A DNA stretch of 64,000 nt from an uncultured Pseudomonadales bacterium (GCA_964537665.1 CAZIBP010000001.1:11972-75971); one strand, 5' to 3'. Shown: positions 33,783 through 54,678, counted from the stretch's first letter. Numbers and translations are program-made. Notes: generated by a model from the sequence alone, not told the origin.

Positions 33783-34889
33783 TCATGTAACTCTAAAAGG
33801 CATAGCGATATAAAAATAATCCGCTCTTTTTTTATCCTTAAAAATCGCTGGTTTTAGGCTTTCATTCATTCCAAAAACCAAAATCTCTGGCTTAACCGCA
33901 TTGATAAAATCAATTAAATAATTAACATTAAAAGCAATTTCTCCACTTTCGCCAGATGGATTATTAATTTCAATCTCTCCAGTATATTCTCCAAAAGATG
34001 GAGAAAATGAGTTAATTTTCATTTTATCTTTATCTAAAGTGATTTTAACAATATTTGAAACTTCTCTTGAAAAAATTGCTGCTCTTTTAAGTTGAATTAA
34101 AAATTCCTCACTTTCAAACTCTATCATGAGAGAGAAATTTGGAGGAATGATTTTCTCATATGGAGGATAATCTCCTTCAATTAGTCGCACGTACATTTCC
34201 ACATTACTTAATTTAAATAGCAATTGTTTTAATTCGTCTGAAACTAAAATTTCTACTAAAAGAGCCTCTGTTTGATGAGCAATTCGATAAAGTTCCTCGA
34301 GAGCTTTGGCTGGAATTAGAATTGTTTTTTCTTGATTCGAATTAATCTCGCTTAGAAAAAGATTGCTTAAACGAAAACCATCTGTTGCCACTACCTCTAA
34401 ACCAGTTTGCTTAAATTTCAATAATAAAGCTGTTAAGACTGGACGGCTTTGATCTATACCTGCACAAAAAGTAACTAAATTCTTAATTTTTTCCAAGTTT
34501 GGCAAACTTAAATGAAAAGAATCTCCTACAACTTGTGGAAAATTTGGAAATTCATCACTTTTCTGACAAGACAATTTACTCACTGTTTTATTTTGAGTAA
34601 TAATCAGAGAATTTTCCTTTAATTCTAATTTAACTTTACCTGTTTCTAAGGAATTAATTAGACTTTTGAATAATTCACCATTTACAATTAAATCTCCCTC
34701 TTCCTCTGTTTCTACTATTAGTTCTGTTTTAATACCTAGATATAAATCAGTAGCTGATAAAGTTAGAATATTTTCTTTCACTCGCAAAAGAATCGAAGAC
34801 AAAATAGTTATTTGTGGTTTACTGGGAATTACTTTCTGTAAATAATTTAGCGAGTTTTTTAGATTTTCTTGTAAAACACTTAATTTCAT
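33783..34889 (-). CDS. dnaN: DNA polymerase III beta sliding clamp
   Basis: MKLSVLQENLKNSLNYLQKVIPSKPQITILSSILL... typical DnaN N-terminus. 368 aa, three-domain size. Confidence 0.85.
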   Translation of the reverse strand: MKLSVLQENLKNSLNYLQKVIPSKPQITILSSILLRVKENILTLSATDLYLGIKTELIVETEEEGDLIVNGELFKSLINSLETGKVKLELKENSLIITQNKTVSKLSCQKSDEFPNFPQVVGDSFHLSLPNLEKIKNLVTFCAGIDQSRPVLTALLLKFKQTGLEVVATDGFRLSNLFLSEINSNQEKTILIPAKALEELYRIAHQTEALLVEILVSDELKQLLFKLSNVEMYVRLIEGDYPPYEKIIPPNFSLMIEFESEEFLIQLKRAAIFSREVSNIVKITLDKDKMKINSFSPSFGEYTGEIEINNPSGESGEIAFNVNYLIDFINAVKPEILVFGMNESLKPAIFKDKKRADYFYIAMPFRVT

Positions 34890-39092: not shown

Positions 39093-40466
39093 TTATGCTT
39101 GGGTTTTTATTGTTTGATCCGATGGTAATTCTTGATTTAAAATTGGTTCTTGAGCTTGTTCTTCAAATTTATTTTGTAAAGGGGTGATATCCTCCCCAAA
39201 TCCTTCTACTAAGTTGCTGTCAGTCGAATTATCAATTGTTAGATTATTATTAGTGGTGTTGACAGAATTAGCGCTAAGTAAGTTTGGATCTAAATTTAAA
39301 TCAAGCTCTGGCGACTGACTATTAACTACCGGATTTTCTTGATTTGGAAGTTCTGGTGGAACTGATATTGGTGACGAAATAGGTTCCGGAATAGCATTAA
39401 CTGGTTCAGGTACAGTATTTATTGGCGTTGTTTCAATAATTGGCGGCATGTCTATTTCACTAGTGATTTCATTAGCTGTTGCCGCTTTTGCTAGATTTTC
39501 AATTTGAGGGTTGTCTGTTGTGTTGTTTAAATTTGGTTCTGGATAAATAACTGTTTGGGTCGGTTCGTTACTTAAAATCTCTTCAGCACTAGGATTGGTG
39601 GTGATCGGTGAAGACAATTCTGGTTGGTTAATATCTTGCGTAGCTGTAGTAATATTTTCGCTAGCGGCTATGAGAGTATCTTCATTATTTGAAATCGGGC
39701 TGGCAGCGGGGGTTGCTGTTATTTGATCTTGAATTAGAGGGCTTTGTTGGTTGCTTGTTTGATTATTTAGTTGCATAAATTTTCCTCCAAAACTGGCCCT
39801 GACTAGGGGAGTTGTATAATTTTCGCTGCTACTGATTTCTTGTCCTTCAGCAGCTTCAGGATTGTAATTGATATAGAAATTTTGAATAATCTCTTGAGTG
39901 GTTAATTGTCTGGTAAAAAGTCCCAAACGGTTAAATTGAGCAGTTAAATGATCTCGACGTGGCTCCAAAATGTTGGTGGCTTTTTCCAGCAAAATACTTT
40001 TTTCAACACTAGTAATGTCAAAGGCAGTTTTGCCAGGTAAAACTCCAGATGGAGTAATTAATCCCATTTCTCCAGGACTAGCCGGAACAATAATATAGAA
40101 TCTTTTTTGCAAAACATTTCTTTCTTTGATTAGAGTTGCCACGAAATCTCGATATTGTTTAATTAAAGTTGCTTTGCGATCTGAACTAGCTTTCTGGACT
40201 TGCTCTTCGAGAAGTCTTAAATATTTAGTAGCATCTTTAGTTTGAGACTGAATATTAATTTGAATTGGGTAGTTGAGAGAATTAAGCAGCGAACCATAGG
40301 TAAAAATTACGGCATCCTGTTCTTGCTCAGCCAATAAACTAAAATTCATTGTGCCAATTTGTAGAATAACTGAAGCGGTACCGTCTTTTAACAGAACCAT
40401 GTCATTGACGATGTCATAGACATCAAGAAATTCTTGCGTGGTGGAACTAATCACTTTATCGCTCAT
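39093..40466 (-). CDS. Hypothetical protein with a long Pro/Asn/Thr/Ser-rich low-complexity C-terminus, between the PrgI-like and VirB4-like genes
   Basis: 457 aa. N-terminal ~230 aa globular, C-terminal half low-complexity (PxxP-rich, ...PEPVNAIPEPISSPISVPPELP...). 1-nt gap to the VirB4-like gene. Confidence 0.4.
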   Translation of the reverse strand: MSDKVISSTTQEFLDVYDIVNDMVLLKDGTASVILQIGTMNFSLLAEQEQDAVIFTYGSLLNSLNYPIQINIQSQTKDATKYLRLLEEQVQKASSDRKATLIKQYRDFVATLIKERNVLQKRFYIIVPASPGEMGLITPSGVLPGKTAFDITSVEKSILLEKATNILEPRRDHLTAQFNRLGLFTRQLTTQEIIQNFYINYNPEAAEGQEISSSENYTTPLVRASFGGKFMQLNNQTSNQQSPLIQDQITATPAASPISNNEDTLIAASENITTATQDINQPELSSPITTNPSAEEILSNEPTQTVIYPEPNLNNTTDNPQIENLAKAATANEITSEIDMPPIIETTPINTVPEPVNAIPEPISSPISVPPELPNQENPVVNSQSPELDLNLDPNLLSANSVNTTNNNLTIDNSTDSNLVEGFGEDITPLQNKFEEQAQEPILNQELPSDQTIKTQA

Positions 40467-40475
40467 GAACTGATT

Positions 40476-41345
40476 CTAGTTTACTAAATTTTGAGGCTTG
40501 ATTACAAGGGGACCTAGTATTTCACCCTTTAATTCTATTTGCGAGCTTGGATATTTGTATTCATTTTTTTCTACCAAGACAAAATAAATTCCATTACTGA
40601 GAGGTTTATTGACCTGAAAATTACCAGCTTCATCGCTTTTCATTATTCTCAAGCTCTGACCTTTCTGATCCTTAATTTCCACAATGGCGTTGACAACAGC
40701 TATGCCGTGTTGATCTAAAACCAAGCCAAAAACTTGATTGGGCAGATGATCGCCATTAGTGATAAAAGTTTGAGGGGTGTTTAATTTTCTAACTCTGGTT
40801 TGTAAACTGGGTTTTTCTTGTTTTTTTAATTCAATTTCAACATCTGTTGACCTGACCTGAACCTTGTCATATTCGCCTAAAATATTACTAATTTTTTGAT
40901 TTTCTTGCAGGTCAAATTGATCAACTCTCTCATCAGAGGGGATGCTTTTTAGATATTCAAAAATTCTTTGTTTGCGTGCGGGGTTTAAATTAACATCTGG
41001 AGCAAAAAAATCACTTTGTGTGCTGCTAATCTTATAATTAAAAAGATCAGGAATTTTGTTGGCTTTTTTCCAGAAAAACTTAGTTGGTTTATAGATGTTT
41101 TTAAAGAAAGTCTTAATCCAATGATCAAGCGGTCTTTCTTCAATTGGCACAAAAGCCACCATTGCCCCAAAACCAACAGTAATAAAAACTAAAGGCCATT
41201 TGATAATTCCGATTAAGTTGGTCTTAAAAATTGCGAAAGCAATTACCACTGCCACAGCAATCTCGGCAAATTGTTTGAGAGTCATGCTACCTATAAGGTG
41301 AAACTTATAGTTGGTGATGTCTTGAGGAATAGGATGTTGTTTCAT
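40476..41345 (-). CDS. PrgI/VirB3-like two-TM membrane protein fused to a C-terminal carboxypeptidase-regulatory-like (Ig-like) domain
   Basis: The N-terminal ~90 aa has two TMs (FAEIAVAVVIAFAIF / WPLVFITVGFGAMVAFVPI) and sits immediately before the VirB4-like gene, as PrgI does. The C-terminus GLVLDQHGIAVVNAIVEIKDQKGQSLRIMKSDEAGNFQ resembles the CarboxypepD_reg fold. Confidence 0.45.
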   Translation of the reverse strand: MKQHPIPQDITNYKFHLIGSMTLKQFAEIAVAVVIAFAIFKTNLIGIIKWPLVFITVGFGAMVAFVPIEERPLDHWIKTFFKNIYKPTKFFWKKANKIPDLFNYKISSTQSDFFAPDVNLNPARKQRIFEYLKSIPSDERVDQFDLQENQKISNILGEYDKVQVRSTDVEIELKKQEKPSLQTRVRKLNTPQTFITNGDHLPNQVFGLVLDQHGIAVVNAIVEIKDQKGQSLRIMKSDEAGNFQVNKPLSNGIYFVLVEKNEYKYPSSQIELKGEILGPLVIKPQNLVN

Positions 41346-41405: not shown

Positions 41406-42401
41406 CTATTTTTCTAAAGCAGTGTTAACTGCTGGAGTAATAATTTGAGCTTGAATGTTGATGCCAGCGGCGTTAGTTAATTTTGCTTGAAACTTATAAA
41501 ATGGATAGACAATTTTTAAACTCTCATCAAGACGATAATCGACTGAAACATCGTACAAATCAGCCTCATTAATCCAATTTAAATCAATCACCTCAACCAA
41601 CTGGCTTTTGGCATCAATGATGGAAGCTTTACCATTTTTAATATTTCTAACCGCTTGATCAAGGCTAATGGTTGGCAAATCTTTAATTGGTGCAAAATTG
41701 TAGAAAAAATCTTTAAAAACCACTCTTTCTACTTGATAGTTGTTGTTAATCTTGCAAAAAAATGGGTAGCTGTTCTCATTTTGATAAAACACAGGATAAC
41801 CGTCCAATTGGTAGCTAAGTGGTACTTGGATGTAGTTGGCTCGAGCTAATTCTGTTTCTGTTTGTTCTGATCTGCCGCTTAAAAAAACCAGATGATCTTT
41901 TTGTGCAATTAAAATTAAATTAACACTATATTTTGAATAAAAATTAAGACAGCTCTTAATTGCTTCGCTTGGAATCATTTGAACTTGATTTGTGGCCTGA
42001 CTGGTATCAAGATCAAAAGCATAGCGGTTTTCATAGGTGTTTTTATTTAAAATGTAAGCTCCTTTTGCCCAATAATTTTCCAGTGAGCCAACATTTTCAA
42101 GCTTATACTCATCGATCATTTTTTGTGCTAATTCACTGGATAAATCTAGAGTTCCGTTAATTTTGTAGATCTTCATTTTTTCTGGTAATGAAATTTCTTC
42201 ACCAGAAAAAGAGATTTTTTTGAAAGTGCTTTTACTTTGATCATAGTTATTAACCACAAAGTCAGTTTGAATAACTTTTTCTTGTTGTGGAGTAATAATG
42301 GTTAAAATGGCGGAAATAAGTAGAGCAAATACGACAAAAACAACTAAAAGAGGAATAACTTTTATTTCTTTTTTAACTTTATTTTTTTGGCTTTGATTCA
42401 T
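41406..42401 (-). CDS. Bitopic membrane-anchored extracytoplasmic protein (possible VirB8/PrgL-like component; no motif support)
   Basis: 331 aa with a single N-terminal TM (VIPLLVVFVVFALLISAILTIITP). The remainder is predicted extracellular. Confidence 0.35.
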   Translation of the reverse strand: MNQSQKNKVKKEIKVIPLLVVFVVFALLISAILTIITPQQEKVIQTDFVVNNYDQSKSTFKKISFSGEEISLPEKMKIYKINGTLDLSSELAQKMIDEYKLENVGSLENYWAKGAYILNKNTYENRYAFDLDTSQATNQVQMIPSEAIKSCLNFYSKYSVNLILIAQKDHLVFLSGRSEQTETELARANYIQVPLSYQLDGYPVFYQNENSYPFFCKINNNYQVERVVFKDFFYNFAPIKDLPTISLDQAVRNIKNGKASIIDAKSQLVEVIDLNWINEADLYDVSVDYRLDESLKIVYPFYKFQAKLTNAAGINIQAQIITPAVNTALEK

Positions 42402-42404
42402 ATT

Positions 42405-45400
42405 TTATTCATAACAAGTGGTGACGTTGTCGCCATTTTTGGGGGGATAGTTCCCATTATCTGCTTCAGGTACCAGAGTTTCAAGAATGGAAAAATTTCT
42501 AGAACTTGGACTGTAAAAAGCTCCATTAAAATCTACTTCATAATGAAGATGTTTGCCGGTTGAATTGCCGCGATTACCCATTAGACCGATAGCAAAGCCC
42601 TCGTCAACATTCATACATGAATTAGGTTGGCTGAGTTGAGAATTGGCTGATTCAAAGTGCGCAAAAAGTAATTTGCGACTGGTACCATTATCATCAAAAG
42701 TGAGAATAAAATAACAACCATAACCAGTGTCACTACACTTAATAAAACAGAGACTGCCAGGAAAAGTGGTATAAACCATACGAACAACATCATCGGGTCC
42801 ATCACTATCGGTAATATCGTAAGCATCAGCGTAACCTCCAGATTCTGGAGGACGATGTGAAGCATCATCATCAGGAATACCCTGTCCAAAAGGCAATTGA
42901 CTAATGTTACCAGTGGTTGGCCAGCAGCCAGCTCCAGCACTACACTCACCCAGACAAACTCTGGCCGCAGTAATGACATTATCAGTGCCAGACATGTAAG
43001 AGTTTTGGTAATAAAAATTAACTTCGATAGTGTTAAGAATGGCAGTGTGGTTGTAGTCGGAACTTAGATTGTCTAAAGTGTAAGTGAAAGTTAGGCTGCT
43101 GCCTGCCTCAATAATAATATTTTCACTACTACCAGATGGAATTGGTGTGGTGGGATTGGGATTGCCCACGCCTAGTGTGGGGGTTGTTGTGGGACTAAGA
43201 GAAGTATTGCTCAGTCCTCCTTGCTGACCAATAATTCCCTTGAAGTATTCAAAGTCTAAAACCTTTTCCGTTGGAATATTGGGTGGAGATTGACCTGCGT
43301 CTTCCCACGCCTTTTTACTTTGTTTAAATTTAATAGTGTCTTCAATGTTGGTGATTTGCAGCGAAAAATCTTCCTTGGGCTTGATAGTGACGGTGTATTC
43401 AATGGAGACGGGAAAAGATGGATTTTCACATTTAGTGCCATTGCTTTCTGGGCTAGGGCAACCGCTTTTAATCACGGCTGTTTTACTAATTTCGGCATAT
43501 TTGGAAGTTTTTTCAACACTATTGATGCCGGCAGCATTTGGATCATTGAAAGGGAAGTCGGTCAAAAAAGCTGAATTTAAACTAGTTTGATAAACATACA
43601 TAAAAATGGTGCTAGCCCCAACGGTGGCAATTACAGCTTGACCGGCAGTAATCATCGCTCCAGAAGAAATACCACTAGTCAGAGTTTTAAGGCCCTGTGC
43701 TGCTTGGGTGGTAGCGACTTGGTTTTGAGTAGCTTGTGCTGTTAGTCCCTGCTTGCCAAAACCACCAATTCCTTCGCTGATCTGATTAATTGCTTTACCT
43801 CCACCAGTGAAAAAATCCTTAATTCCACCCCAAGCGTTACGCAAAAAAATTGCCGCAGGAGCCAAGATCAGTAATAATGGCAACATGGAGCCAAGCGCCG
43901 CCAAAATTCCCAAACCAAGCAACCAAGGCCAATTTTTCTTGATAAATTCAAGAACTTTTTCCAGGCCCATTTCTATTAGTTTTTCTTTGAGTTGTTTGAC
44001 AAGTGGAACTGCTGCTTCAGCAGCTCGCAGAGCTTCTCCCCAGCCACCAGCCGCATCAAGAGCTAGATAAAGCCCTTCACTTAGGGCTTTGGTGGCTAGT
44101 TTTTTGCTCTGCTGACCCAGAGCACTGTCCATAAAATCAGTGCTCTGATAATTACTATTTGAGGCAAAAGCTTGCTGAGCCCAACCATCTCCATTCTGAT
44201 AAAAGGCATTGTTTCTAGCAAAGTTGGTGGCGCGCTCAAAAATACTAGTCCCAAGCGTTTCATTAGCTTGGAGCATATAGAAATCCATGGGATTAATTTG
44301 AGGAAGGACTTGGGTTTGGAAAATTTGGATACTATATTCTTGAATAGTATAGCCAGGCAAATAAAAATCAAAATATACTTTGAGAGTTTTTTGCTGCTCT
44401 GCTTCGCTCATCTTGGCCAATTGTTCTTCTAGGTTTTTTTTGATGAGGTCTTGTTGTTGGCCAATAAATTGGTTGACTTCAGCTCCATCCACTTTGGCAT
44501 TAGCTGAGCCAGCTAATTTTTCTGCAATTTCTCTGCCGCCATAAGTGAGATTGAGAGTGCCTAAATTGCGTAATTGAGCAATTTTTTGAGGATTTTTGCT
44601 AATTTCTTTAAGTAATTGTTGGGCTTCTTCCGGAGTGTATTTTTCTTGGGCAAATTCTTGGCGAATTTCACTAGCCCAGATAATCCTTTTTCTTTTCCAG
44701 TAAAAAATAATTAAGTTGGCTAACTCTTCTCGATGATTATTAAACTCAGAACGTTCGATGCTAGTGCCAAAAATATTAACAAATCTGTTGTAATCAAAGT
44801 TTTTTGGATCAGGAATCAGGTATTCTGGAGGCAAACCTTGTTGAATGAAGACTTCGATCAAAGGTCGAACGTTATCGGTGATTAATTTAATTTTAAAATT
44901 ATCTTGATTACCAATAATTTGGCGAATTTTCTCTCCAAAAATTTGTTCCAGTCGTCCTTCATCTTGGACAATATTTAATTCTGATTCGATTTTCCTAGCA
45001 AAGTCTTGATTACTTTGACCTTCATCTTGTTTTTGCTGCAGAATTGCTTGGGCCTGAGCAGTGTTAGTGGAGTTTTCCTTGTCATTTTTGATGCGAGGAC
45101 TAAGTTTGTCGTTTGTGAGTTTTTCTTTTTCGTTGGCTTTAATTTTCGCTGCTGCCTTTTGACCATCTTTGGCAATTTCGCGAACGCTATCATTAAGCAA
45201 CTTAAGACCATGAACATCCATAAGCAAGCCGAGTGCGGCTTGATTGCTAAAATTAATACGCTTAGATTGCTCTCTAATTAAACTGTCCAAAGAGAATTGA
45301 CCGCTTAGAAGTAGGTTTTCCACCTGTAAAAAAGCTCGATCCATTAGTTGACGTCGCACATCAAGGGGTAGCTGATCAAAAGTAACCTGAGTACCCGGTG

Positions 45401-46235
45401 GCAAGCCAATTTTGGCTAGAGAAGCCTCATTAAAATATCTATTAAGAGCTTGATTGATGGTGATGATGGAGAGTGATTGGAGGTAAAGTCGAGACTGAGG
45501 ATCAAGCTCTGAGATTTTAATGGGGGTTGTGTCAGTGTTAGGCTCTTGAGTTTTTTTTGGCTCGCGACTTTGACTGGATTCAGCTTCGCCACCACCTCTC
45601 TCTGTTTCTTGAGGCTTTTTTTGACCTGGAAAAAGTCCAGCCAGGCCTAGTCCGCCAGTACTAGTGGAGGTGACACTTGGCGTTGTTTCCGCAATTTCCT
45701 CCTCAATTTTTTCTTCTGGAGCAATACTTGGTGCCAAGATTAAATAAATTAATTTAATGCGTTCAACAATCCTTCTCGAATAATCTATGTACTCAATTCT
45801 TTGTAGGTCTTCAATGCTAACCTTATCACCTGCTGGTTCCACACCCACTAATTTAAAAGTGCTTTCCAGTCGGTCTAATTCTTGTCTTTGAGTTGAGCTG
45901 ATGGAAATGTTGTTGCTACTTAAAGAAGTGCGGATTTGTTCAACAAAATTAACCAAGTCAGACAAAAACAAAAAAGGCACTTTGCCTCTGGGTGGGGCAA
46001 TACCATTTAAAATGTCAGCAGCAGTGCTAAGATCAAATTCGCCGCCATAACTAAAGCCTTCAATCGCAAAATCACCTTTGACTTTTTTGTCTCCTGCTGC
46101 TTCAGCATAAAAATTGCTAATCCAGCCAGCACTTCTCTGGAGAATTTCACGAATTTGAGCGGCACTGAGACTCTCAACGCCGGCTAGTTTCTTCAGTTCG
46201 ATTCGAGTTTTTTGATTAATTGCTTCTGCTGCCAT
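42405..46235 (-). CDS. Giant membrane protein with a C-terminal M23 (LytM-type) metallopeptidase domain; candidate cell-wall hydrolase of the T4SS-like apparatus
   Basis: 1276 aa. Central TM cluster (NWPWLLGLGILAALGSMLPLLLILAPAAIFL; AMITAGQAVIATVGASTIFMYVY). C-terminal KLLFAHFES ... GNRGNSTGKHLHYEV matches the M23 blocks (xLYAHLS / GSTGxSTGPHLHFE). Confidence 0.65.
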   Translation of the reverse strand: MAAEAINQKTRIELKKLAGVESLSAAQIREILQRSAGWISNFYAEAAGDKKVKGDFAIEGFSYGGEFDLSTAADILNGIAPPRGKVPFLFLSDLVNFVEQIRTSLSSNNISISSTQRQELDRLESTFKLVGVEPAGDKVSIEDLQRIEYIDYSRRIVERIKLIYLILAPSIAPEEKIEEEIAETTPSVTSTSTGGLGLAGLFPGQKKPQETERGGGEAESSQSREPKKTQEPNTDTTPIKISELDPQSRLYLQSLSIITINQALNRYFNEASLAKIGLPPGTQVTFDQLPLDVRRQLMDRAFLQVENLLLSGQFSLDSLIREQSKRINFSNQAALGLLMDVHGLKLLNDSVREIAKDGQKAAAKIKANEKEKLTNDKLSPRIKNDKENSTNTAQAQAILQQKQDEGQSNQDFARKIESELNIVQDEGRLEQIFGEKIRQIIGNQDNFKIKLITDNVRPLIEVFIQQGLPPEYLIPDPKNFDYNRFVNIFGTSIERSEFNNHREELANLIIFYWKRKRIIWASEIRQEFAQEKYTPEEAQQLLKEISKNPQKIAQLRNLGTLNLTYGGREIAEKLAGSANAKVDGAEVNQFIGQQQDLIKKNLEEQLAKMSEAEQQKTLKVYFDFYLPGYTIQEYSIQIFQTQVLPQINPMDFYMLQANETLGTSIFERATNFARNNAFYQNGDGWAQQAFASNSNYQSTDFMDSALGQQSKKLATKALSEGLYLALDAAGGWGEALRAAEAAVPLVKQLKEKLIEMGLEKVLEFIKKNWPWLLGLGILAALGSMLPLLLILAPAAIFLRNAWGGIKDFFTGGGKAINQISEGIGGFGKQGLTAQATQNQVATTQAAQGLKTLTSGISSGAMITAGQAVIATVGASTIFMYVYQTSLNSAFLTDFPFNDPNAAGINSVEKTSKYAEISKTAVIKSGCPSPESNGTKCENPSFPVSIEYTVTIKPKEDFSLQITNIEDTIKFKQSKKAWEDAGQSPPNIPTEKVLDFEYFKGIIGQQGGLSNTSLSPTTTPTLGVGNPNPTTPIPSGSSENIIIEAGSSLTFTYTLDNLSSDYNHTAILNTIEVNFYYQNSYMSGTDNVITAARVCLGECSAGAGCWPTTGNISQLPFGQGIPDDDASHRPPESGGYADAYDITDSDGPDDVVRMVYTTFPGSLCFIKCSDTGYGCYFILTFDDNGTSRKLLFAHFESANSQLSQPNSCMNVDEGFAIGLMGNRGNSTGKHLHYEVDFNGAFYSPSSRNFSILETLVPEADNGNYPPKNGDNVTTCYE

Positions 46236-46297: not shown

Positions 46298-49126
46298 TTG
46301 GTTCTTTTAGATCAAAAATGGTATAATAACAGTGTATCTAAAGATAGAAGACTTATGATTAAACCAGGTCAAGAAAATCCAGTTGAAAATGAACAAGGCT
46401 TTGAAACTGCTGATAGTTGGATTGCCAGAAAAGAAGAAGAACTCCAAGAATTAATTATCGAGATAGAAACACAACTGAGCTTAGACGGAATTAGTAAAGG
46501 TCAAAAACACAATAAAGATAAGGAAATAGAGTTAACTTTTAATGCTGGAGCAAAAGCAATCATTTTAGAATTGGAAAAAAGAAAAAGAAAAGCTCCAGTA
46601 GATGTTCCAAAGTATGAAGCTTTCAGGTTAAGTATTTTTACTTTAAGAGAAAAGTTTTTTAAGGATTGGGGAGTGGCTGTTGATAAAAATGAAGAGGTTT
46701 TGAATGTTGGTAAAATGACTCTTCGTGAAGTTGCCGACTATGTCTTAGAAAAAGAACTTGTTTTTTGGACTGGTGAACATGATGGCTGGACAGATGAGAA
46801 TGACCGAAGAGTAGTCGATGCTTTGGTCCAAAGATTATGGAAAGACAAAGACAAGATTTCTGGATTGACCAAAGATGCTATACCTGGAGAGAAAAGAACT
46901 GATGGCTCACCACATTACTTTGCAGATTTAGACGTCAGAGAGATAGTCAGTGATTTACAGATATTAGGTTTATTTGGGATTCTGAATGAAAAAGGTGCTG
47001 AAAGAAAAGATGACGGCGTAGCAGAAGGTAGGATAACTCAACTAGAATCTGCAATGGCTACTTTGCAAATTTCCAAAGAAAGGCTTAATGAAACTACCCT
47101 AGCTCACCCTAGAACTGGTTTGGTGCTATACGAGATGCTAAGAAGAATGAAAGATCAGCCAGCTTTGAGGGATGGTAAGACGCCGGTTTTAAACGAAGGA
47201 AAATTGCCACCTGGTTTTGGAAGAGCTCCGGTTAACGATAGAATAGTTCAGAGAGGAAGTACGAAGATTGTCTTATATGGAGATAGATATAAAGAAAGTT
47301 TTGACGAATCTGGAAACGTGACTAGTCGTGAAGTTGTTGAATATACTCCTCTGGAAGCTGGAGATACGCTAATTATAGATTATTCCCAAACAACCGATGG
47401 TTTTGTTAGAAAAGCCTTGCCAGACAGAGTTGTTGAGAGAAATGGAATGGATGTTTTGTTAGTGGGAGACAGACTAAATAAAATAGTGAATAAGGATGGA
47501 AAAGAGATTGGTGCAAGATGGTATGATCCAGATCAAGCTCTTCCAACTGATACTAATTTGTATCAATTTGATCCTAGATTTTCTTACGAAACTTTAGCCA
47601 GTGACACTGGTAAGGATACTTTAAAGAAGTATGCAGCACACCTTTTATCTTTGATAGAGGAGCAAAGATTGGAAGAAAAAGATGCTAAAGATCAAAGTAG
47701 AGTTTTAGATTGGTCAAAAATTCACTTTAAAGAATTAATTGGTTTTAAATTTCCAGATCCAAGTGATGAAAAATTTGGTAAGGGAGATATTAGAAGATTA
47801 GAAATGTATGCTAGATACTTATTTTTTTGTTTTCCTTTCCTTACTAATATCTTAGCTATTAGACAAGAGAGAACACAGACTCCTTCTCATGGTTTTAACA
47901 ATAAGGACATTCCTTTTGTTTGGATTTTTAACATGCTTGGATTTATTTCTCATAAATCACAAAGATATGCAAACTCAGACAATGCTTACTACTACATGCT
48001 TAAGTTTTTTAAACCACTAAGAGAGGGAGCATATGGTGCTGGAGGTGAAGCGAGAAGATTAAATGCGGTGAGAGATTTGATTATTAAATACGATAAAGTT
48101 TTTAGTGATGATCAGGATAATGTTTCAGTTATCCCCAATATGCCCTATGGCTCATCAGTTTTTCACACAGCGCTCAGCATGTTGTCTTTGGCTCCTGGTG
48201 ATACCTCTGCTTTGAGCGGTAGAGCTGAGTTATATGATGGGACTATCCTAGATGGAACACCAGACAAGCCTGTTTTTCTTAGTTTAGGTGGAGTAAGAGC
48301 TCCAAAAAGAAAAGAGCCATATAATTTTAGTTTGCTTTACACTTCAATTAGAGCTTGGGATACTCTCACAACAGGTTCTTTACAATCCTTGCCTGGAAAT
48401 TTAACAATCGCTTCTATTGCTGAGGGTGGTGGAAAGGATAAATCTTTTATATCTCAGAAATATGGAGACAACGTTGGTCAGGCCAAGATGAGTGACACGA
48501 GAACAAGAGAAAAGGATAAGATTCCGAGCCTCAAGGAATTTAATCATTTGAAATTAGCTGCTAATTTAATTTGGGATACTGTACAAAGAATTTTCAGAGA
48601 ATACCCGGCAAATAGTATTGAGGCAAGAATTAAACTTTACGAAGAGCTTGAAAAAGGTTTTAGACATACTGCTGAGGTTGGTGGTTTATCTGCTGGTGAT
48701 TCAGCTGAAGTTCTAACTTGGGTTTTGGATAAAATGTCCAAACCAGATAGAGACGGCAAATTATATGGTAAAGGAGTTGGTGGATTTGCCGGCATGAACC
48801 CTTGTTTGGCATATAGAGAGGCAACAATTGATGGTAAGAGGGGTAAAGAAGTTTTTGAATATGTTGAGGCTCTTTGGAACTACAAACACTCTGATGCTGA
48901 AGGAAAGGTTACTAAACCATTTCCTTTCAAACTAGTTGCCGGAACCAGTGGTACTGGTTATGTTGCTATAAACAAACAATTTGTGAAGCATGCTTTTGAT
49001 CCCGATCCAGAAATAGAAGAATATAAAGGTATGCTTTATGGTTATAAGATGGAAAAGGGCGAAAAGAAAAAAGCAAGATTGCCAGAGCCTATTGCTAGAA
49101 TTAACCTAGATAAGCACGAAGACTAA
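46298..49126 (+). CDS. Large (942 aa) soluble hypothetical protein, opposite strand, embedded in the T4SS-like cluster
   Basis: No TM, no nucleotide-binding or known catalytic motif recognisable by eye. Divergently transcribed from the M23 giant gene across a 62-bp gap. Confidence 0.5.
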   Translation: MVLLDQKWYNNSVSKDRRLMIKPGQENPVENEQGFETADSWIARKEEELQELIIEIETQLSLDGISKGQKHNKDKEIELTFNAGAKAIILELEKRKRKAPVDVPKYEAFRLSIFTLREKFFKDWGVAVDKNEEVLNVGKMTLREVADYVLEKELVFWTGEHDGWTDENDRRVVDALVQRLWKDKDKISGLTKDAIPGEKRTDGSPHYFADLDVREIVSDLQILGLFGILNEKGAERKDDGVAEGRITQLESAMATLQISKERLNETTLAHPRTGLVLYEMLRRMKDQPALRDGKTPVLNEGKLPPGFGRAPVNDRIVQRGSTKIVLYGDRYKESFDESGNVTSREVVEYTPLEAGDTLIIDYSQTTDGFVRKALPDRVVERNGMDVLLVGDRLNKIVNKDGKEIGARWYDPDQALPTDTNLYQFDPRFSYETLASDTGKDTLKKYAAHLLSLIEEQRLEEKDAKDQSRVLDWSKIHFKELIGFKFPDPSDEKFGKGDIRRLEMYARYLFFCFPFLTNILAIRQERTQTPSHGFNNKDIPFVWIFNMLGFISHKSQRYANSDNAYYYMLKFFKPLREGAYGAGGEARRLNAVRDLIIKYDKVFSDDQDNVSVIPNMPYGSSVFHTALSMLSLAPGDTSALSGRAELYDGTILDGTPDKPVFLSLGGVRAPKRKEPYNFSLLYTSIRAWDTLTTGSLQSLPGNLTIASIAEGGGKDKSFISQKYGDNVGQAKMSDTRTREKDKIPSLKEFNHLKLAANLIWDTVQRIFREYPANSIEARIKLYEELEKGFRHTAEVGGLSAGDSAEVLTWVLDKMSKPDRDGKLYGKGVGGFAGMNPCLAYREATIDGKRGKEVFEYVEALWNYKHSDAEGKVTKPFPFKLVAGTSGTGYVAINKQFVKHAFDPDPEIEEYKGMLYGYKMEKGEKKKARLPEPIARINLDKHED

Positions 49127-49192: not shown

Positions 49193-50866
49193 TTATTTTT
49201 TGCTTTTATTGAAATAGTCGCCCATCATGGTAGTGAGATCTTCTGGATCAAAAGCTCTTCCCTCAGCGATTCTATCTAGTTGTATTCTGACCTTCTTGCC
49301 AGATTCAAAACCTTTTTGTAATCCACCTGCCCCATTTTCCATGCCTCTTGTTTTGCTTCCAGTGACACCACCAAAGGCAATTGGAGTTTCATCATCACCA
49401 GTTCTAGAATATCCTTGCCAACCAGCCTTGACGGCTTTCAGTAAGCTTTCATCTGGGTTATCTTTTCTAAATGCTGCTCCAGCTCTTACTCCACCATAAG
49501 CACCTTGTAATCCAGCACCAATTAGAGGAGCAGTGATTGTGCCTTCTTTAATTCTACCCATTGCATCTTTAGCCAACTGTCCAAAAATACCTTCGTCTAC
49601 GCCCATAGCTTTTTTGACTTGCTGCATAATTTCTGGAATAACTAACAAGACACCAATGCCAAGAATGACCGGAACAATGGCGCCTTGTCCTTGACCCATT
49701 AAAAATGGCGGCATAAAACCACCACCAAAAGAAGCATCCAAAGCTTGGCCGGTACCCTGCATGCTGCGAATTGGTGCAGTTAACATGCGTTGCACTAGGA
49801 CACAAAGTAAGACTACTGGCCAAAGGATTAAGTTGCCGACAAGATCTTTGATCCATTTACCAAAAACATTTTTACCTGGAAAAGCTCCAAGCATCAAAAT
49901 AATTGGCGAAAAAATAATTTGGATCAAAACTGCCACGTAAGTTTTGACCAACTCAAAAAATACCTTAAAAGTGGCGAAAAGAATGGCAATGCCAATAATG
50001 ACCGTGCCAAGTAAACTAGACATCCAAGCTAAAGCTTCACCCACAAAACCAATATTTAGCGCATCTTCCATGAATTGTTCGATCGCGTTCTGGGTGGTAC
50101 CAGTGGTGCCCTTAAACATTAAGCCCACTAGGCCAAAAATATTACGAGTGACGATATCTGGACCTTCAGTGAAAAAGCCAGCCAACATGTACATCACCAC
50201 ATACATCAGATCAATCATAAAGCCAGCAATGGCGTAGGAAAAAGTAACTGCCAGCATAGCGATGATAATATTGGGAATGGCTTGCTGAGCAGTGATGGCG
50301 GCTTGGCCAACTTTGGTTCTAAACATGATCATAAAACCAATGACCAAGAAGGCGACTACAAAAAATAGATAAGCGAGATTGCGAAAAGCTTTCCAGGTTT
50401 CTAAGATTGGATCGAGGGCTGAAAAACCTAAGCCTTGAGCTTGTGCCTCTGGGATAATTTTCGCCGATTTCATCACATCTGCCACATAAGAGCGAGCACT
50501 GGCTGGTGGGGTGTAAAGAGCTACGATGCCTTTGTTTACATCCCCAAGCACTCCATAACCGATCTGTTTCTCTAGGGCTTTTCTCTCACTAGTGGTCATG
50601 CTACCGTCATTAGGAATGGCGGCCATACCGATGGCGTGCAGGTTGATATTGGTGAAAGTGTTGGACAAACTCTCGGCATCAAACTTTTCTTTGTCGGCAT
50701 TTTTGCTGGAAAAAGCAGTCACACTTTTATCAGTTGACTCATTGGTGAAAATGCCAGCTAGCCAATCAAGAATTCCGACTGCTCGCGCAGGTTTAACTGA
50801 CGTCAAAAAACAAGCCAAAACCAAAGACAAAATCAACAATAGGCGAGAAGTTTTCTGCTGTATCAT
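49193..50866 (-). CDS. VirB6/TrbL/PrgH-like polytopic membrane protein (inferred)
   Basis: 557 aa. Signal peptide, then at least 6 long hydrophobic segments (e.g. ALAWMSSLLGTVIIGIAILFATFKVFFELVKTYVAVLIQIIFSPIILMLGAF) and a Gly-rich C-terminal tail; architecture typical of VirB6-family proteins. Confidence 0.45.
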   Translation of the reverse strand: MIQQKTSRLLLILSLVLACFLTSVKPARAVGILDWLAGIFTNESTDKSVTAFSSKNADKEKFDAESLSNTFTNINLHAIGMAAIPNDGSMTTSERKALEKQIGYGVLGDVNKGIVALYTPPASARSYVADVMKSAKIIPEAQAQGLGFSALDPILETWKAFRNLAYLFFVVAFLVIGFMIMFRTKVGQAAITAQQAIPNIIIAMLAVTFSYAIAGFMIDLMYVVMYMLAGFFTEGPDIVTRNIFGLVGLMFKGTTGTTQNAIEQFMEDALNIGFVGEALAWMSSLLGTVIIGIAILFATFKVFFELVKTYVAVLIQIIFSPIILMLGAFPGKNVFGKWIKDLVGNLILWPVVLLCVLVQRMLTAPIRSMQGTGQALDASFGGGFMPPFLMGQGQGAIVPVILGIGVLLVIPEIMQQVKKAMGVDEGIFGQLAKDAMGRIKEGTITAPLIGAGLQGAYGGVRAGAAFRKDNPDESLLKAVKAGWQGYSRTGDDETPIAFGGVTGSKTRGMENGAGGLQKGFESGKKVRIQLDRIAEGRAFDPEDLTTMMGDYFNKSKK

Positions 50867-50963: not shown

Positions 50964-51788
50964 ATGATCGATCATGCACAAACTGATAAATTCAGGGACA
51001 TTCTAGAGCTTAGCAAAAATACACTGTTGATTTTTAAGGAGAGTAAAGATCTTGATTTATTTCTTGCCAGTTATTGTTTATTTTCCTTTCTAGTGAGAGA
51101 AAAAGAAATTCGTCTTTTAACTCCCAAATTTAAACTAAAACTTCCCAAGTCATTAACAGATTTAATCGACCTTAAAAAGATTGAGACAGAACTGGGTAAA
51201 GAAAATTTATTGATTAGTTTTCCTTACCTTGAAGAGCAAGTCGACAAAGTTTCTTACTATATTGGTGAACACGATCAGCGTTTTTATCTCACTATCAAAC
51301 CAAAAAGTGGTGTAGCGGCAATTGATAGTTCTAAAGTGGAATTTTCTTATGCCGGAACCCAAGCTGATTTGTTAATTCTATGTGGAGTGGAGGATTTGGA
51401 AAAATTGGAACAGCTCTATTTTGCTTATGAGGATTTGTATAAAACCAATAATAATCATGTGGTGACCCTCAATCACTTTATTCCAGATTTTGGCACTCTC
51501 AACTTAGATATTTCAGGAGCTAGTTCTTATTGTGAGGCGGTTTACTATTTGCTCAAAGATTTGGGAGAAGATAAACAAGATTTTTTGGCCAAAAGTGATT
51601 TACCAACCTTACTACTTTATGGGATTGAATATAGTAGTCGTGGTTTACAATCTATGGACACCACAGCGAGCACTTTCCTCAGCGTGGCAGAATTACTAAA
51701 GCTTGGTGCTACTCGGCTTTTTAAATTAGATTTGCCAGCAAACGTAAAAACTATTGGGCAGCAGCCCCAGATTCATTCAATAAAATAG
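50964..51788 (+). CDS. Hypothetical protein (possibly a degenerate DHH/NrnA-like fold)
   Basis: 274 aa, soluble. Weak resemblance to DHH phosphoesterases, but the DHH catalytic residues are not evident. Confidence 0.3.
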   Translation: MIDHAQTDKFRDILELSKNTLLIFKESKDLDLFLASYCLFSFLVREKEIRLLTPKFKLKLPKSLTDLIDLKKIETELGKENLLISFPYLEEQVDKVSYYIGEHDQRFYLTIKPKSGVAAIDSSKVEFSYAGTQADLLILCGVEDLEKLEQLYFAYEDLYKTNNNHVVTLNHFIPDFGTLNLDISGASSYCEAVYYLLKDLGEDKQDFLAKSDLPTLLLYGIEYSSRGLQSMDTTASTFLSVAELLKLGATRLFKLDLPANVKTIGQQPQIHSIK

Positions 51789-54678
51789 CGGTGGTGATTG
51801 AGCCTGGTCGATTATATTCAGGATATTTATTGCCGTTACTTAAACTCTGACACATGTTTGATCCAGCGTAGCAATAGGAAGCAGCATCGGTCAGCAATTG
51901 TTCTTTGTAAGCGTCGTCAAAGCCATATTCAGCTTGTGATTGATCGAGGCTTTTTCTTAATTCTTGCATGGCAAAATCAGTTGGTTCGCTAGTGCAGTTA
52001 AATTCCACATAGTCCAGACAATAGATTAGATCCATGTCGCTGTGACGTTCGTCAATCCAGCCAAGCGGGTGAGGATGATCCTCAGCGGTAAATTGAGCCT
52101 CACATTTACCTCCATCACGCCATCTGGTATCTCTGAGTTCGCCTTCTTTATCTGTGCTACAGTTCATATTGCCTGGTCCGTTGTAAGCACCAATGGCTTC
52201 AGTTAAATCTTCATAGGGAATATTTTCTTTATTGAAGGACCCTGGCCAGAAACTCAAAAGATGTTCCATGGCAGTTTTGGCATCTTCTTTGAGCGAACCA
52301 CCTCTGAGAGCATTGCCATCCCAGACAGAACCATTTGGATCTAGGCCAGCTTCTGTCCAGTGGATGCCGGCCACCACCTCACAAGGAATGCCGGTTTCTT
52401 CTTCTGCATATTCATAGGCTTCGATTAGTTCGTCGGTAATCTTGGGAGCAATGTCTGCGGTAAACATGTCTTTGGCGTACTGAGGGATTCCGCTGGTAGG
52501 TGGTAAACCGGTGACATTTTTGAAAGCTTCTCCTTTACAGAAACTTTGGTCTTGCTTGCCTTCTGGATCACCGCTACAGCGACCCAGAAACATGTCTTCG
52601 ACTCTTTGACAAGAAACAATGTAGTCGTAAGTTTGACTGAAAGTATTGCGTAGTTTTTGCTGAATTTTGCGCACCATAAAGCCTAGTCCAAAGTCAGGAA
52701 TTAGCAGCTCACCTTTACTCGAGCTTTCTTCTTTGCTGGCTGTATCACTAAAGCCAAAACCAAAGGCGTATTTGGTACATTCCTCAACGATTTCGCCATC
52801 TTCATTTTCAACTTCAGTACATTCATCTAGTGGATGAATTTCATCGGCGGCACTGATGCCAAAATTAACATCTTTGATAGTGTAGTACTTGGGAATCGCC
52901 CCTTGTTTGCTGGTGCCATCGTCATTGGTCATGTCCTCAATAATGTTGGTTCTAACTAGTTCGAAGAAATCCTCTTCATTCCAAAAAATACTCAAGGCTT
53001 TATTAACGTCTTTAACATTTTCACCAATTGGCAAAACTAAATAAGCATTAACAATCATGGGTGGATCAAGTGGAGGAGGGTCTTCATCAATGACCAATTT
53101 CCACTCAAAATCATTCACATGTAGCGAATATAGCTCATCAACAATTGCTTTGTTCATTTGTTCTCTATAGCTATATTCTTTCATTTCTTTTGCAGCAGGG
53201 GTAAAAAGGTCGCCAGCTCTTTCCCAATTTAAATCTTCTTGATTAAAAACAAACTCAATCCCGCTAGCAGTGGCTTGTCTTTCGTTCAAATTAAGGTTAA
53301 AGCTAGACATGTCAATTTCTTCTCCAGTTTCAGTGCTGGTGTTTTCTATCACTCTAAGAGTGTCGTTGCGACAGGTTATAGACGTTCCATTGATGATGCT
53401 GATCAGCGTTCTTTCTAGTGGCTTCAGACATTTTGGATAGGGACAACCGATGACTGGTTTGGTGGGAGCTAAGGCTGATTGATAAAGCAACTCTCGTTTA
53501 TCAGCTTGATCTTTGAGGTCTTTGTCATTTTGTTCTTTGGGTTGTATGACCATCTTTGTCAATTCCAAAGTGTCGATATTACCAGCAATTCTAGATTTGT
53601 TGGTGCCAAAATCAGGAATTTTGAAGGCAATAAAAGTGGGAGCCTCCACTTGGGAATCTACTTGTGGATCTGCTTGGAGAAAGTAAAACTTGTCTCCTTC
53701 ATCGTATTTGCCTGGATCTTGAGTGGGAACTAAAACCAAAAATGCCAAGCGATATAAAGTATCAAAATCAATGCCAATGCGATTAACTCCCTCTCTTAGT
53801 TTGGCAATCTGATCTAGATCAACGTCGGGTGGAGCATAACTGGTATTACTAACACTACTGTCTCCACCAGTGATGTCAAGGCAAACCTGTTGATAAAGCT
53901 GATCGTCTGCAAGCTCTGGTCTAATTGCTTGAAACCAATCCAGCAGTTCAACTAGATTAAAATTAACGTCCACCACGTGTTCGGTTGATTTAAGATCTTT
54001 AATTTCAGCATCAGTCACAACTCTACTGCTACCTTCTTCGTCAACAGCAATTTTGAACTCGTACTTTTTGTCGATGGTGCATTCATCAGTCACTTCGTCA
54101 CAAATTTGTTTAGCAGCTAAAAGATTTTGAGCTTTAGCCAGACATTGTTGATAGGAGGACAGAACTCTTTTGCTAACCCCAGCAGAATTTAACATGTAAC
54201 TGTCATGAAGGGTTTGATAGTTGGCTCCAAACATGCCCTCTAGTGAACTGTTTTTAATTGTTTCTTCTTTATTTTCCAAACCACGGAACATGGGAATTCT
54301 AGCTTTACTTAAATCAGTGACGTAGGGCGCAATGCCACTAAAAACAGTTGGATTGAGGCCATTGTAGAAACTTTCTTCTGGGGGAATGCTGTCACTAAAA
54401 AATTTGTTGATATCTCCCAGTAATTTTTTATCAATTGCCCACTGCATGGCAGCACAATGTGCCTCATATCCTTGATCTTTAATCATGGTGGGCAAAAGAT
54501 CTTCCCAACCATAACTGTTACCGTCTGGCAGAAACATTGGCATCAGGGTGAACTGATTAACTACATCGCTAGTTGCGGTGTCACTGCTTTGAGCTTTGAC
54601 TTCTAGCTTTGTGGAAATTAGCAATAAAGCAGAACAGAACACACCCACAATCGCTTTTTTTGAAAATCGAGTAAACAC
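51751..54678 (-). CDS. Large (975 aa) secreted hypothetical protein
   Basis: N-terminal signal peptide (AIVGVFCSALLLISTKLEVKAQS). Many Cys, acidic. C-terminal region ...GIPCEVVAGIHWTEAGLDPNGSVWDGNALRGG... of unknown family. Confidence 0.5.
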   Translation of the reverse strand: MFTRFSKKAIVGVFCSALLLISTKLEVKAQSSDTATSDVVNQFTLMPMFLPDGNSYGWEDLLPTMIKDQGYEAHCAAMQWAIDKKLLGDINKFFSDSIPPEESFYNGLNPTVFSGIAPYVTDLSKARIPMFRGLENKEETIKNSSLEGMFGANYQTLHDSYMLNSAGVSKRVLSSYQQCLAKAQNLLAAKQICDEVTDECTIDKKYEFKIAVDEEGSSRVVTDAEIKDLKSTEHVVDVNFNLVELLDWFQAIRPELADDQLYQQVCLDITGGDSSVSNTSYAPPDVDLDQIAKLREGVNRIGIDFDTLYRLAFLVLVPTQDPGKYDEGDKFYFLQADPQVDSQVEAPTFIAFKIPDFGTNKSRIAGNIDTLELTKMVIQPKEQNDKDLKDQADKRELLYQSALAPTKPVIGCPYPKCLKPLERTLISIINGTSITCRNDTLRVIENTSTETGEEIDMSSFNLNLNERQATASGIEFVFNQEDLNWERAGDLFTPAAKEMKEYSYREQMNKAIVDELYSLHVNDFEWKLVIDEDPPPLDPPMIVNAYLVLPIGENVKDVNKALSIFWNEEDFFELVRTNIIEDMTNDDGTSKQGAIPKYYTIKDVNFGISAADEIHPLDECTEVENEDGEIVEECTKYAFGFGFSDTASKEESSSKGELLIPDFGLGFMVRKIQQKLRNTFSQTYDYIVSCQRVEDMFLGRCSGDPEGKQDQSFCKGEAFKNVTGLPPTSGIPQYAKDMFTADIAPKITDELIEAYEYAEEETGIPCEVVAGIHWTEAGLDPNGSVWDGNALRGGSLKEDAKTAMEHLLSFWPGSFNKENIPYEDLTEAIGAYNGPGNMNCSTDKEGELRDTRWRDGGKCEAQFTAEDHPHPLGWIDERHSDMDLIYCLDYVEFNCTSEPTDFAMQELRKSLDQSQAEYGFDDAYKEQLLTDAASYCYAGSNMCQSLSNGNKYPEYNRPGSITTAILLNESGAAAQ

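Follow-up and report, generated by a model that had tools for sequence, protein, structure and literature searches.

A conserved cysteine-rich protein with a predicted lysozyme-like domain, encoded in a type IV secretion gene cluster of candidate phyla radiation bacteria

The stretch of DNA studied here (the window) is a 64,000-nucleotide sequence deposited under the name of an uncultured Pseudomonadales bacterium (GCA_964537665.1 CAZIBP010000001.1:11972-75971). It carries a cluster of type IV secretion system (T4SS) genes that includes a large gene for a 975-amino-acid (aa) protein. Neither the whole protein nor either of its two modules matches a family in Pfam, NCBIfam or PHROGs. We found that the protein is conserved and modular, that its gene keeps its place beside pilin genes, and that its C-terminal domain is predicted to adopt a lysozyme-like fold. 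Its features are given below; pLDDT stands for the predicted local distance difference test of the AlphaFold2 (AF2) model.

51751-54678, minus strand: whole open reading frame (ORF), 975 aa plus stop, GTG start; a predicted exported, acidic, Cys-rich protein of two modules, with 56 homologue clusters
54592-54678, minus strand: predicted signal peptide, aa 1-29 (VFTRFSKKAIVGVFCSALLLISTKLEVKA, then Q), Sec-type by sequence rules, with a V-x-A cleavage motif and no lipobox
52537-54561, minus strand: N-terminal module, aa ~40-714, with sub-modules at ~45-210, ~265-455 and ~480-700; 12 mature Cys, most of them invariant; specific to the candidate phyla radiation (CPR)
52639-52704, minus strand: linker motif, aa 659-680 (LIPDFGLGFMVRKIQQKLRNTF), just N-terminal to the predicted catalytic domain; AF2 pLDDT <50 despite high conservation
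51754-52536, minus strand: C-terminal lysozyme-like (GH23-like) domain, aa 715-975, the predicted catalytic domain
52333-52395, minus strand: motif I, aa 762-782 (TGIPCEVVAGIHWTEAGLDPN), with Glu776 (codon 52351-52353), the predicted catalytic residue, and His773, which is invariant
52168-52185, minus strand: YNGPGN, aa 832-837, counterpart of SLT motif III A-Y-N-x-G-x-G (S-Y-A-N-G-A-G in MltE)
51829-51993, minus strand: helical insert, aa 896-950, with C936/C943; family-specific and absent in distant members; conservation 0.45; helices modelled at 901-946

The gene and its predicted exported product

On the minus strand, 975 codons and a stop fill positions 51751-54678 exactly, and the plus-strand frame over the same interval is riddled with stop codons. 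These are the coordinates and the length of the original prediction, which had left the strand unstated. The GTG start is supported by the aligned homologues, which begin MFNRFSKK at this position. A word-indexed search recovered 56 full-length or near-full-length homologue clusters with 37-71% identity, the named ones being metagenome-assembled genomes (MAGs) of Pacebacteria and Woesebacteria (Microgenomates). In addition, an exhaustive hidden Markov model (HMM) search with the family profile returned 491 proteins at E<=1e-3. Hence, the 975-codon ORF is not a product of chance. This conservation and a synteny that is fixed in 49 of 55 genomes also argue clearly against a lineage-specific filler. 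The closest relatives of the window protein come from Pacebacteria/Microgenomates MAGs and point to an ultrasmall bacterium of the CPR (Patescibacteria) as the probable source of the window.

About 160 of the examined proteins bear the C-terminal domain, and all those that could be placed taxonomically belong to CPR lineages; a second homology search, with the domain profile, gained only 27 short unannotated proteins. To obtain a set of loci, one genome per GTDB species was scanned with the domain profile. The resulting 55 loci (L004-L058) are spread over Pacebacteria, Woesebacteria, Collierbacteria, WWE3, Dojkabacteria and Microgenomates MAGs. Many of these MAG records are titled 'uncultured Pseudomonadales/Gammaproteobacteria bacterium', evidently a wrong label for a CPR-specific cluster, and the Pacebacteria-like genome CP011212.1 is labelled, evidently also wrongly, 'candidate division TM6'. 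No relative of the C-terminal domain was found in phage genomes, plasmids or IMG/VR viral contigs, and an origin from a phage endolysin or a plasmid was therefore rejected.

The N-terminus has the layout of a signal peptide, with an n-region (K7K8), a hydrophobic core (aa 9-27) and a c-region (V-K-A, followed by Q). The core is the sole transmembrane (TM)-like window of the protein, and the same n/h/AxA-type layout is present in most of 48 homologues. Lipoprotein anchoring was rejected for want of a lipobox and of conservation at C15, which just 5 of the 48 possess. Sortase anchoring was discarded as well, there being neither a C-terminal TM segment nor, when the translation was read through, an LPXTG-like motif. 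A scan for promoters and terminators around the gene gave counts at background level.

The protein is acidic. Asp and Glu make up 16.9% of the residues against 9.0% for Lys and Arg, with a net charge of -77 and a mature isoelectric point of 4.37; in Asp plus Glu content it ranks third among the 47 ORFs of the window (median 11.4%). Its 21 Cys (2.15%) rank it fifth of 47 (median 0.6%). Across the 48 homologues 18 of the 20 mature Cys are invariant, C620 and C634 being present in 40 each, and this invariance leads us to infer extracytoplasmic disulfides. The signal peptide, the very high Asp/Glu content and the many cysteines of the original prediction are thus all borne out. By these heuristic rules, the conserved Sec-type signal peptide and the invariant Cys would place the protein in the wall compartment, as in the VirB1-type class of T4SS-associated hydrolases.

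Modular architecture and the lysozyme-like domain

The exhaustive profile search resolved two independent modules, at profile positions ~7-700 and ~700-875. The N-terminal module also occurs in many proteins of ~850-1400 aa that lack the C-terminal domain of the window protein, and the C-terminal module recurs in many other architectures. We detected no structural or sequence relative of the ~670-aa N-terminal module outside the CPR family, and no recognisable fold in it. A Pfam scan of 43 proteins with this module showed that 18 of them end in PF18896 SLT_3 ('lysozyme like domain') at the place where the window protein has its own domain. GH5/cellulase-like domains are present in three of the 43, and in P0087 the module is followed by a T4SS pilin. 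The SLT_3 regions of these relatives, whose profile found no match in the PDB, show the classical AESGGNP...GLFQIN motifs of lytic transglycosylases. One N-terminal scaffold bears two unrelated-looking lysozyme-type domains in different lineages, which is a domain replacement and argues that the C-terminal domain of the window protein does the same job. As for the C-terminal domain, scanning 62 proteins that carry it revealed fusion to T4SS_pilin in five (P0136, P0145, P0154, P0161 and P0146), where the domain lies directly N-terminal to the pilin hairpin, and Peptidase_M23, CHAP (P0092) and GH5 in one each.

In profile-profile comparisons, the N-terminal module proved unrelated to the N-termini of other proteins with the C-terminal domain, save for a linker motif of ~25-30 aa. 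This motif has the form (L)IPDFGLGFMVRKIQQKLR in the window family and LYIPGAKLGWMIRKLQExLRE in the SLT_3 proteins; proteins whose N-termini are unrelated have FPHIGGISEYFLKGIQTALRPKGYG. P0094/P0097/P0098 and P0131-P0158 are among those that share it. Such a motif thus stands ahead of the lysozyme-like domain in two architectures that are otherwise unrelated, and it may be a docking or processing element. The full-length AF2 model is of medium quality, with a pLDDT of 74.7 overall and ~90 over the C-terminal 250 residues. Two conserved stretches are modelled at pLDDT <50 and are for that reason candidate interaction surfaces. The first, aa 128-169 (54172-54297, minus strand), has a conservation of 0.68 against a protein average of 0.60, with R132, G133, K142, S145, G148, F150 and G151 invariant, and is probably an interaction or substrate loop and not disorder. 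The second, aa 643-682, has a mean conservation of 0.56 and shares residues with the strongly conserved linker region aa 659-714.

The C-terminal region had been described as a domain of ~200 aa without known family, containing (I/V)xAGIHWTEAG, for which a lysozyme- or transglycosylase-like fold should be considered. The region exists; its size is 261 aa, including the family-specific 55-aa insert, and the motif reads VVAGIHWTEAG at aa 768-778. A domain-only model of aa 715-975, built from an alignment of 35 diverse sequences, reached a pLDDT of 96.6 and a predicted template modelling (pTM) score of 0.92. It predicts an alpha+beta lysozyme-like fold in which two lobes enclose a substrate groove. 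The lysozyme superfamily is characterized by a catalytic Glu that ends a helix ahead of a beta-hairpin. In the model, E776 has this position: it lies where helix 766-777 ends and precedes a beta-bridge pair at ~783/790.

Conservation of the putative active site was determined on 161 unique domain sequences, three of which are fragments without the motif I region. E776 and H773 are invariant in 158 of 158 aligned sequences, as are Y755 and P765 across the unique domain sequences. N833, G834, G836 and N837 are kept in 156-159 of the 161, N839 and C840 are nearly invariant too, and D867, D876, H879, M882 and D889 are conserved wherever the sequences cover that part. As a consistency check only, we looked at the top local profile alignment to MltE of E. 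coli, which is ungapped and sets MltE residues 50-70 against GIPCEVVAGIHWTEAGLDPN, with E776 on E64; E64 is the residue mutated in PDB entry 4hjy ('MltE-E64Q'). A strict regular expression derived from this pair matched only 32 of 120 MltE homologues and, not being general, was dropped as a test.

Compared with the SLT motifs, the Glu of motif I is present, the Ser that follows it is replaced by Ala/Gly, the subsequent G-x-[ND]-P-N is kept, and motif III takes the form (A/R)-Y-N-G-x-G-N. The domain shows no G-L-M-Q, has Ala/Gly in the place of Ser after the Glu and gives no significant profile match, and we therefore filed it as a new sequence family with a predicted GH23-like fold, outside Pfam SLT and SLT_3. 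In Pfam the window protein had no match even at E<=1, and no SLT family (PF01464) reached threshold among the 48 homologues. Likewise, the protein does not belong to SLT_3 (PF18896), as it has no Pfam match, a local HMM of the SLT_3 region found nothing in the window, and the catalytic cores do not correspond. With its extra invariant Asp and His residues, the domain could act either as a lytic transglycosylase or as a hydrolytic muramidase.

A fixed place among T4SS genes

The neighbouring genes of the window are the following.

54706-55437, minus strand: pilin fusion of 243 aa with signal peptide, Cys-rich extracellular domain (12 Cys) and VirB2-like TM hairpin (PF18895, E 1.1e-8)
55434-56306, minus strand: second pilin fusion, 290 aa, 10 Cys (PF18895, E 1.3e-7)
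50964-51788, plus strand: convergent gene of 274 aa, DHH-like by a sub-threshold match (E 5e-4), without signal peptide, cytoplasmic
49193-50866, minus strand: polytopic membrane protein of 557 aa with signal peptide and ~6 TM segments, called VirB6-like from its topology and position alone; no HMM match
46298-49126, plus strand: highly charged protein of 942 aa (Asp plus Glu 15.7%, Lys plus Arg 15.0%) without family match
42405-46235, minus strand: protein of 1276 aa with a single TM segment (aa 772-790) and a C-terminal Peptidase_M23 domain, the second wall hydrolase of the cluster
41406-42401, minus strand: single-TM protein of 331 aa, a member of the T4SS cluster
40476-41345, minus strand: PrgI/VirB3-like protein (Pfam scans)
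39093-40466, minus strand: TraC/TrsD-like protein of 457 aa (Pfam scans)
36884-39091, minus strand: VirB4-like ATPase (Pfam)
56382-58085, plus strand: SpoIID-domain gene flanking the pilin genes
58328-60148, minus strand: VanW+PG_binding_4 gene, followed by SBP and CofD genes, the block being syntenic in all close relatives

The two pilin genes overlap by 4 nt, and each encodes a signal peptide, a Cys-rich extracellular domain of 170-210 aa without Pfam match and a VirB2-like hairpin at the C-terminus. The 975-aa gene lies downstream of them after a gap of 27 nt, and the 274-aa gene overlaps its 3' end by 38 nt. The place between a VirB6-like gene and pilin-fusion genes, as originally proposed, is thus borne out, with two PF18895 fusions upstream. 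The order pilin, pilin, 975-aa gene, DHH-like gene (plus strand), VirB6-like gene, 942-aa gene (plus strand), M23, 331-aa gene, PrgI/VirB3-like, TraC/TrsD-like, VirB4, dnaA, dnaN is matched in two long contigs of relatives (L001 and L002), and that of the T4SS core genes also in L004-L058; the 942-aa and M23 genes are both conserved in related loci. The cluster adjoins dnaA (35197-36753) and dnaN (33783-34889), with yidC beyond, and so lies next to the replication origin. No other ORF of the window carries either of the two lysozyme-type domains. As in the VirB1-type class, the gene is encoded within a T4SS cluster, which here comprises VirB4, TraC-like, PrgI, M23 and VirB6-like proteins and two pilins.

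We then counted neighbours in the 55 loci, searching their six-frame ORFs with the window proteins and scoring T4SS markers within 10 kb. At least one marker was found in 49 loci. Pilin genes lie upstream in 44, the VirB6-like gene follows immediately downstream on the same strand in 45, and in 10 loci the domain and a pilin are contained in one ORF. The 274-aa gene is kept at its place in the close family alone (L001-L023), and distant T4SS loci lack it. In L024, L032, L033, L050, L056 and L058, among them loci of WWE3 and Dojkabacteria and one from a MAG labelled Saccharibacteria, no marker was detectable with the window proteins. Their partners may have diverged too far, or the contigs may be of insufficient length; alternatively, the domain may serve there outside a T4SS cluster.

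Of the roles that this place might suggest, that of a housekeeping autolysin for growth or division, set beside T4SS genes by chance, would agree with the wall-metabolism genes close by (SpoIID, VanW/PG_binding_4, M23) and with the core genes dnaA/dnaN that the region adjoins. We regard it as very unlikely, because the slot between pilin and VirB6-like genes persists in distant relatives that have neither the N-terminal module nor the DHH-like gene nor SpoIID/VanW neighbours (L026-L057). In addition, the domain is physically fused to T4SS pilin, and it was not found outside T4SS-bearing CPR lineages or in phages, plasmids and viral contigs.

The same fixed slot bears on the possibility of an effector or toxin that would be exported or injected by the T4SS through a two-step route like that of pertussis toxin, first by Sec and then by the T4SS. 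A strict single-copy structural position in 45-49 of the 55 genomes is unlike the variable, cargo-like distribution of effectors, and fusion to the membrane hairpin of a pilin, as in the relatives, is incompatible with free translocation. Moreover, no immunity gene is adjacent, and in a monoderm, export by Sec is enough to bring the protein across the membrane. We found no support for a classical translocated effector and judge this role to be highly improbable.

A structural or adhesive accessory has somewhat more in its favour. VirB5 sits between the pilin and VirB6 in classical operons, which is the slot of the 975-aa gene. According to this explanation, the N-terminal module would be the functional part, for example as a VirB5-like tip adhesin, and the lysozyme-like domain would be a pseudo-enzyme that merely binds glycan. 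The module is indeed large, conserved, Cys-rich and of unassigned fold, and the conserved low-confidence stretches aa 128-169 and 643-682 resemble interaction surfaces. Pseudo-enzymes, however, tend to lose their catalytic residue in one lineage or another, whereas the putative catalytic Glu, together with H773, N833, N837, D867, H879 and D889, is invariant or nearly so in ~160 diverse sequences, as is typical of an active enzyme. That relatives carry a classical SLT_3 domain instead also argues that catalysis is the selected function, and no adhesin-like fold was found. We consider such an accessory unlikely. Of the three roles originally offered, a secreted effector, a pilus-associated adhesin and a wall-modifying enzyme, our results favour the last; the fusions of the domain to T4SS pilin in relatives lend indirect support to a link with the pilus.

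A probable wall-opening enzyme and its target

The interpretation that we prefer, and hold to be probable though well short of certain, is that the 975-aa protein is a Sec-exported, disulfide-stabilised enzyme that is associated with the T4SS or its pilus and cleaves glycan strands. It would be the functional counterpart of VirB1 and PrgK/TraG-type hydrolases of Gram-positive bacteria in a Microgenomatia-type Patescibacterium (CPR) with a chromosomal T4SS/pilus system. The protein would be exported by Sec, with the signal peptide cut after VKA29, and would fold outside the membrane with up to ten disulfides, as the 18 invariant Cys suggest. The 261-aa diverged GH23-like domain, so predicted from the model, would then cleave the glycan strands of peptidoglycan with Glu776 as general acid. 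The ~670-aa N-terminal module and the conserved linker may hold the enzyme at the T4SS or pilus and prevent its diffusion. Such docking is suggested by the fixed slot between pilin and VirB6-like genes and by the fusion of either module to a VirB2-like pilin in relatives. The most parsimonious target would be the cell's own wall, opened to let the T4SS channel or the pilus pass.

Several points weigh against this interpretation. The fold assignment comes from a predicted structure, and sequence searches of the C-terminal domain against Pfam, NCBIfam, PHROGs and the PDB are all empty, in keeping with the unknown family of the original prediction; for the PDB, this holds for phmmer and hmmsearch with the single sequence, the family profile and the domain profile (profile at E<=10). 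E776 is assigned as the catalytic Glu from secondary structure and from an alignment to MltE that is statistically insignificant, the profile comparison (hhalign) having a probability of 0.8% and being worthless as statistics. The domain lacks the canonical E-S and G-L-M-Q motifs, and hhalign comparison with the SLT_3 region gave probabilities of 0.2-34% and did not match the catalytic cores. A cleavable signal peptide is found here, whereas VirB1-like hydrolases of Gram-positive bacteria are usually membrane-anchored. The ~670-aa extra module, the GH5 fusions and the pilin fusions exceed what an enzyme that punches a hole in its own wall would need. Finally, the role of the Patescibacteria T4SS is itself unknown (PMC11665869).

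These excess parts favour the main rival of a self-directed enzyme, a host-directed lysin borne by the VirB2-like pilus or by its tip, which would digest the host wall or a surface polysaccharide for uptake of nutrients or DNA or for delivery of effectors, and would thereby resemble phage tail-tip lysins and depolymerases. In this form, the VirB2-like pilus of Microgenomatia and related CPR would be a wall-piercing organelle with a glycosidase 'cargo', which is either fused to the pilin, as in 10 of 55 genomes, or docked as a 106-kDa protein, as in the window, and acts on the host wall at contact. The catalytic domain is fused N-terminally to the T4SS pilin hairpin in relatives, within one ORF in 10 of 55 loci, and the N-terminal module is also pilin-fused in P0087. 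GH5/cellulase-like domains, present in 3 of 43 relatives of the N-terminal module and 1 of 62 of the C-terminal domain, are needless for an enzyme of the own wall. The size of the extra module also speaks for the host-directed role, and the heavy disulfide stabilisation suits an exposed extracellular life. The window protein, however, is a separate polypeptide without pilin hairpin, and polymerisation of pilins with large N-terminal domains is not known. Nor is there an adjacent exported gene that resembles an immunity gene; the 274-aa product of the DHH-like neighbour lacks a signal peptide. All the supporting data fit a role on the own wall near the pilus base equally well, and we regard the host-directed enzyme as possible but doubtful. 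Were it true, the growth-essential T4SS of Patescibacteria would gain a concrete mechanism, namely an enzyme that breaks through the host envelope to allow uptake or delivery.

Our proposal of a T4SS-associated wall-cleaving enzyme can be set against known systems. Patescibacteria T4SS are related to the monoderm MPF-FATA class, often lie beside dnaA, mostly lack relaxases and have arrays of VirB2-like pilins that are abundant in Microgenomatia; VirB1 and VirB6 homologues have been hard to find in them, especially in Microgenomatia (Quinonero-Coronel et al. 2025, PMC12102498). Southlakia epibionticum needs its T4SS genes to grow as an epibiont (PMC10633639), and these essential genes include a peptidase and a lysozyme homologue beside virB4 (PMC12102498). 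An attack of lytic transglycosylases on the host envelope has also been proposed (PMC11665869). The 975-aa family, its C-terminal domain and the pilin-lysozyme fusions are not described in PMC12102498, PMC12857230 or PMC11665869, which were consulted outside a systematic literature search.

VirB1-like hydrolases of Gram-positive systems combine SLT and CHAP or LytM, muramidase and CHAP domains (PMC12857230); they include TraG of pIP501 (SLT+CHAP), PrgK of pCF10 (LytM+muramidase+CHAP), Orf14 of Tn916 and CD419/CTn1-Orf17. Like them, the window gene lies inside a monoderm (MPF-FATA-like) T4SS cluster and is predicted to encode an exported enzyme of lysozyme fold. Relatives of its domain are fused to CHAP and M23, and a separate M23 protein is encoded in the cluster. 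Unlike them, the window protein has no Pfam match to an SLT family or CHAP, has a cleavable signal peptide in the place of an N-terminal membrane anchor, and carries a CPR-specific N-terminal module of unassigned fold ahead of the enzyme. The window cluster also has VirB2-like pilins, which the Gram-positive systems lack (PMC12857230, PMC12102498). The PF18896 SLT_3 proteins of Patescibacteria share with the window protein the three-part N-terminal module, the linker motif and the order of signal peptide, N-terminal module and C-terminal lysozyme-like domain, but their catalytic domain is of a different sequence family, with AESGG and GLFQIN motifs that are missing here.

With the family 1 lytic transglycosylases and the g-type lysozymes (CAZy GH23; Pfam SLT PF01464; MltE/EmtA of E. 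coli, Slt70, MltF of P. aeruginosa, goose-type lysozyme), the domain shares the invariant Glu ending a helix before a beta-hairpin, as far as the model tells. The alignment with MltE further brings out an ungapped motif-I-like pattern, G-[IV]-x3-[LV]-[IV]-x-[AG]-I-x3-E-x-G-x-[ND]-P-N, and the domain has a motif-III-like Y-N-G-x-G-N. It differs from GH23 members in the lack of significant sequence or profile similarity (identity 8-17%), in the Ala/Gly after the Glu, in the missing G-L-M-Q and in an invariant His three residues before the Glu. The invariant D867, D876, H879 and D889, the three to four disulfides and the 55-aa helical insert also set it apart. The specialised lytic enzymes of other machines that span the envelope, such as EtgA of the type III secretion system, FlgJ of flagella, phage tail-tip lysins and T7 gp16, serve different machines and have no sequence relationship to it.

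In this sense, a conserved large 'hypothetical' gene between pilin and VirB6-like genes gains a predicted wall-cleaving role, and a gap in the parts list of an enigmatic T4SS would be filled; wall hydrolases of secretion systems are already well known as a principle. The fold and the kind of enzyme are known as well. What is new is the domain family, unannotated until now and with a testable predicted catalytic residue, and its unusual fusion relatives. The combinatorial architectures link the domain with the N-terminal module, SLT_3, CHAP, M23, GH5 and T4SS pilin, and the pilin fusions raise the question of whether CPR pili carry enzymes. A profile of the family would convert hundreds of hypothetical proteins into predicted T4SS-associated glycosidases.

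Two further observations concern other parts of the window. At 218-1693 and 1705-2871, both on the plus strand, two adjacent ORFs have 6.7% and 8.0% Cys, a TM segment each and no Pfam match; with Cys-rich repeats (ACGxxxCxxxxDCxxGxxC...) and Pro/Thr-rich linkers (TPTDEPTV repeats), they probably encode surface proteins. At 14183-16033, on the minus strand, lies a three-domain ATP-dependent DNA ligase of archaeal/eukaryotic type (DNA_ligase_A_N/M/C).

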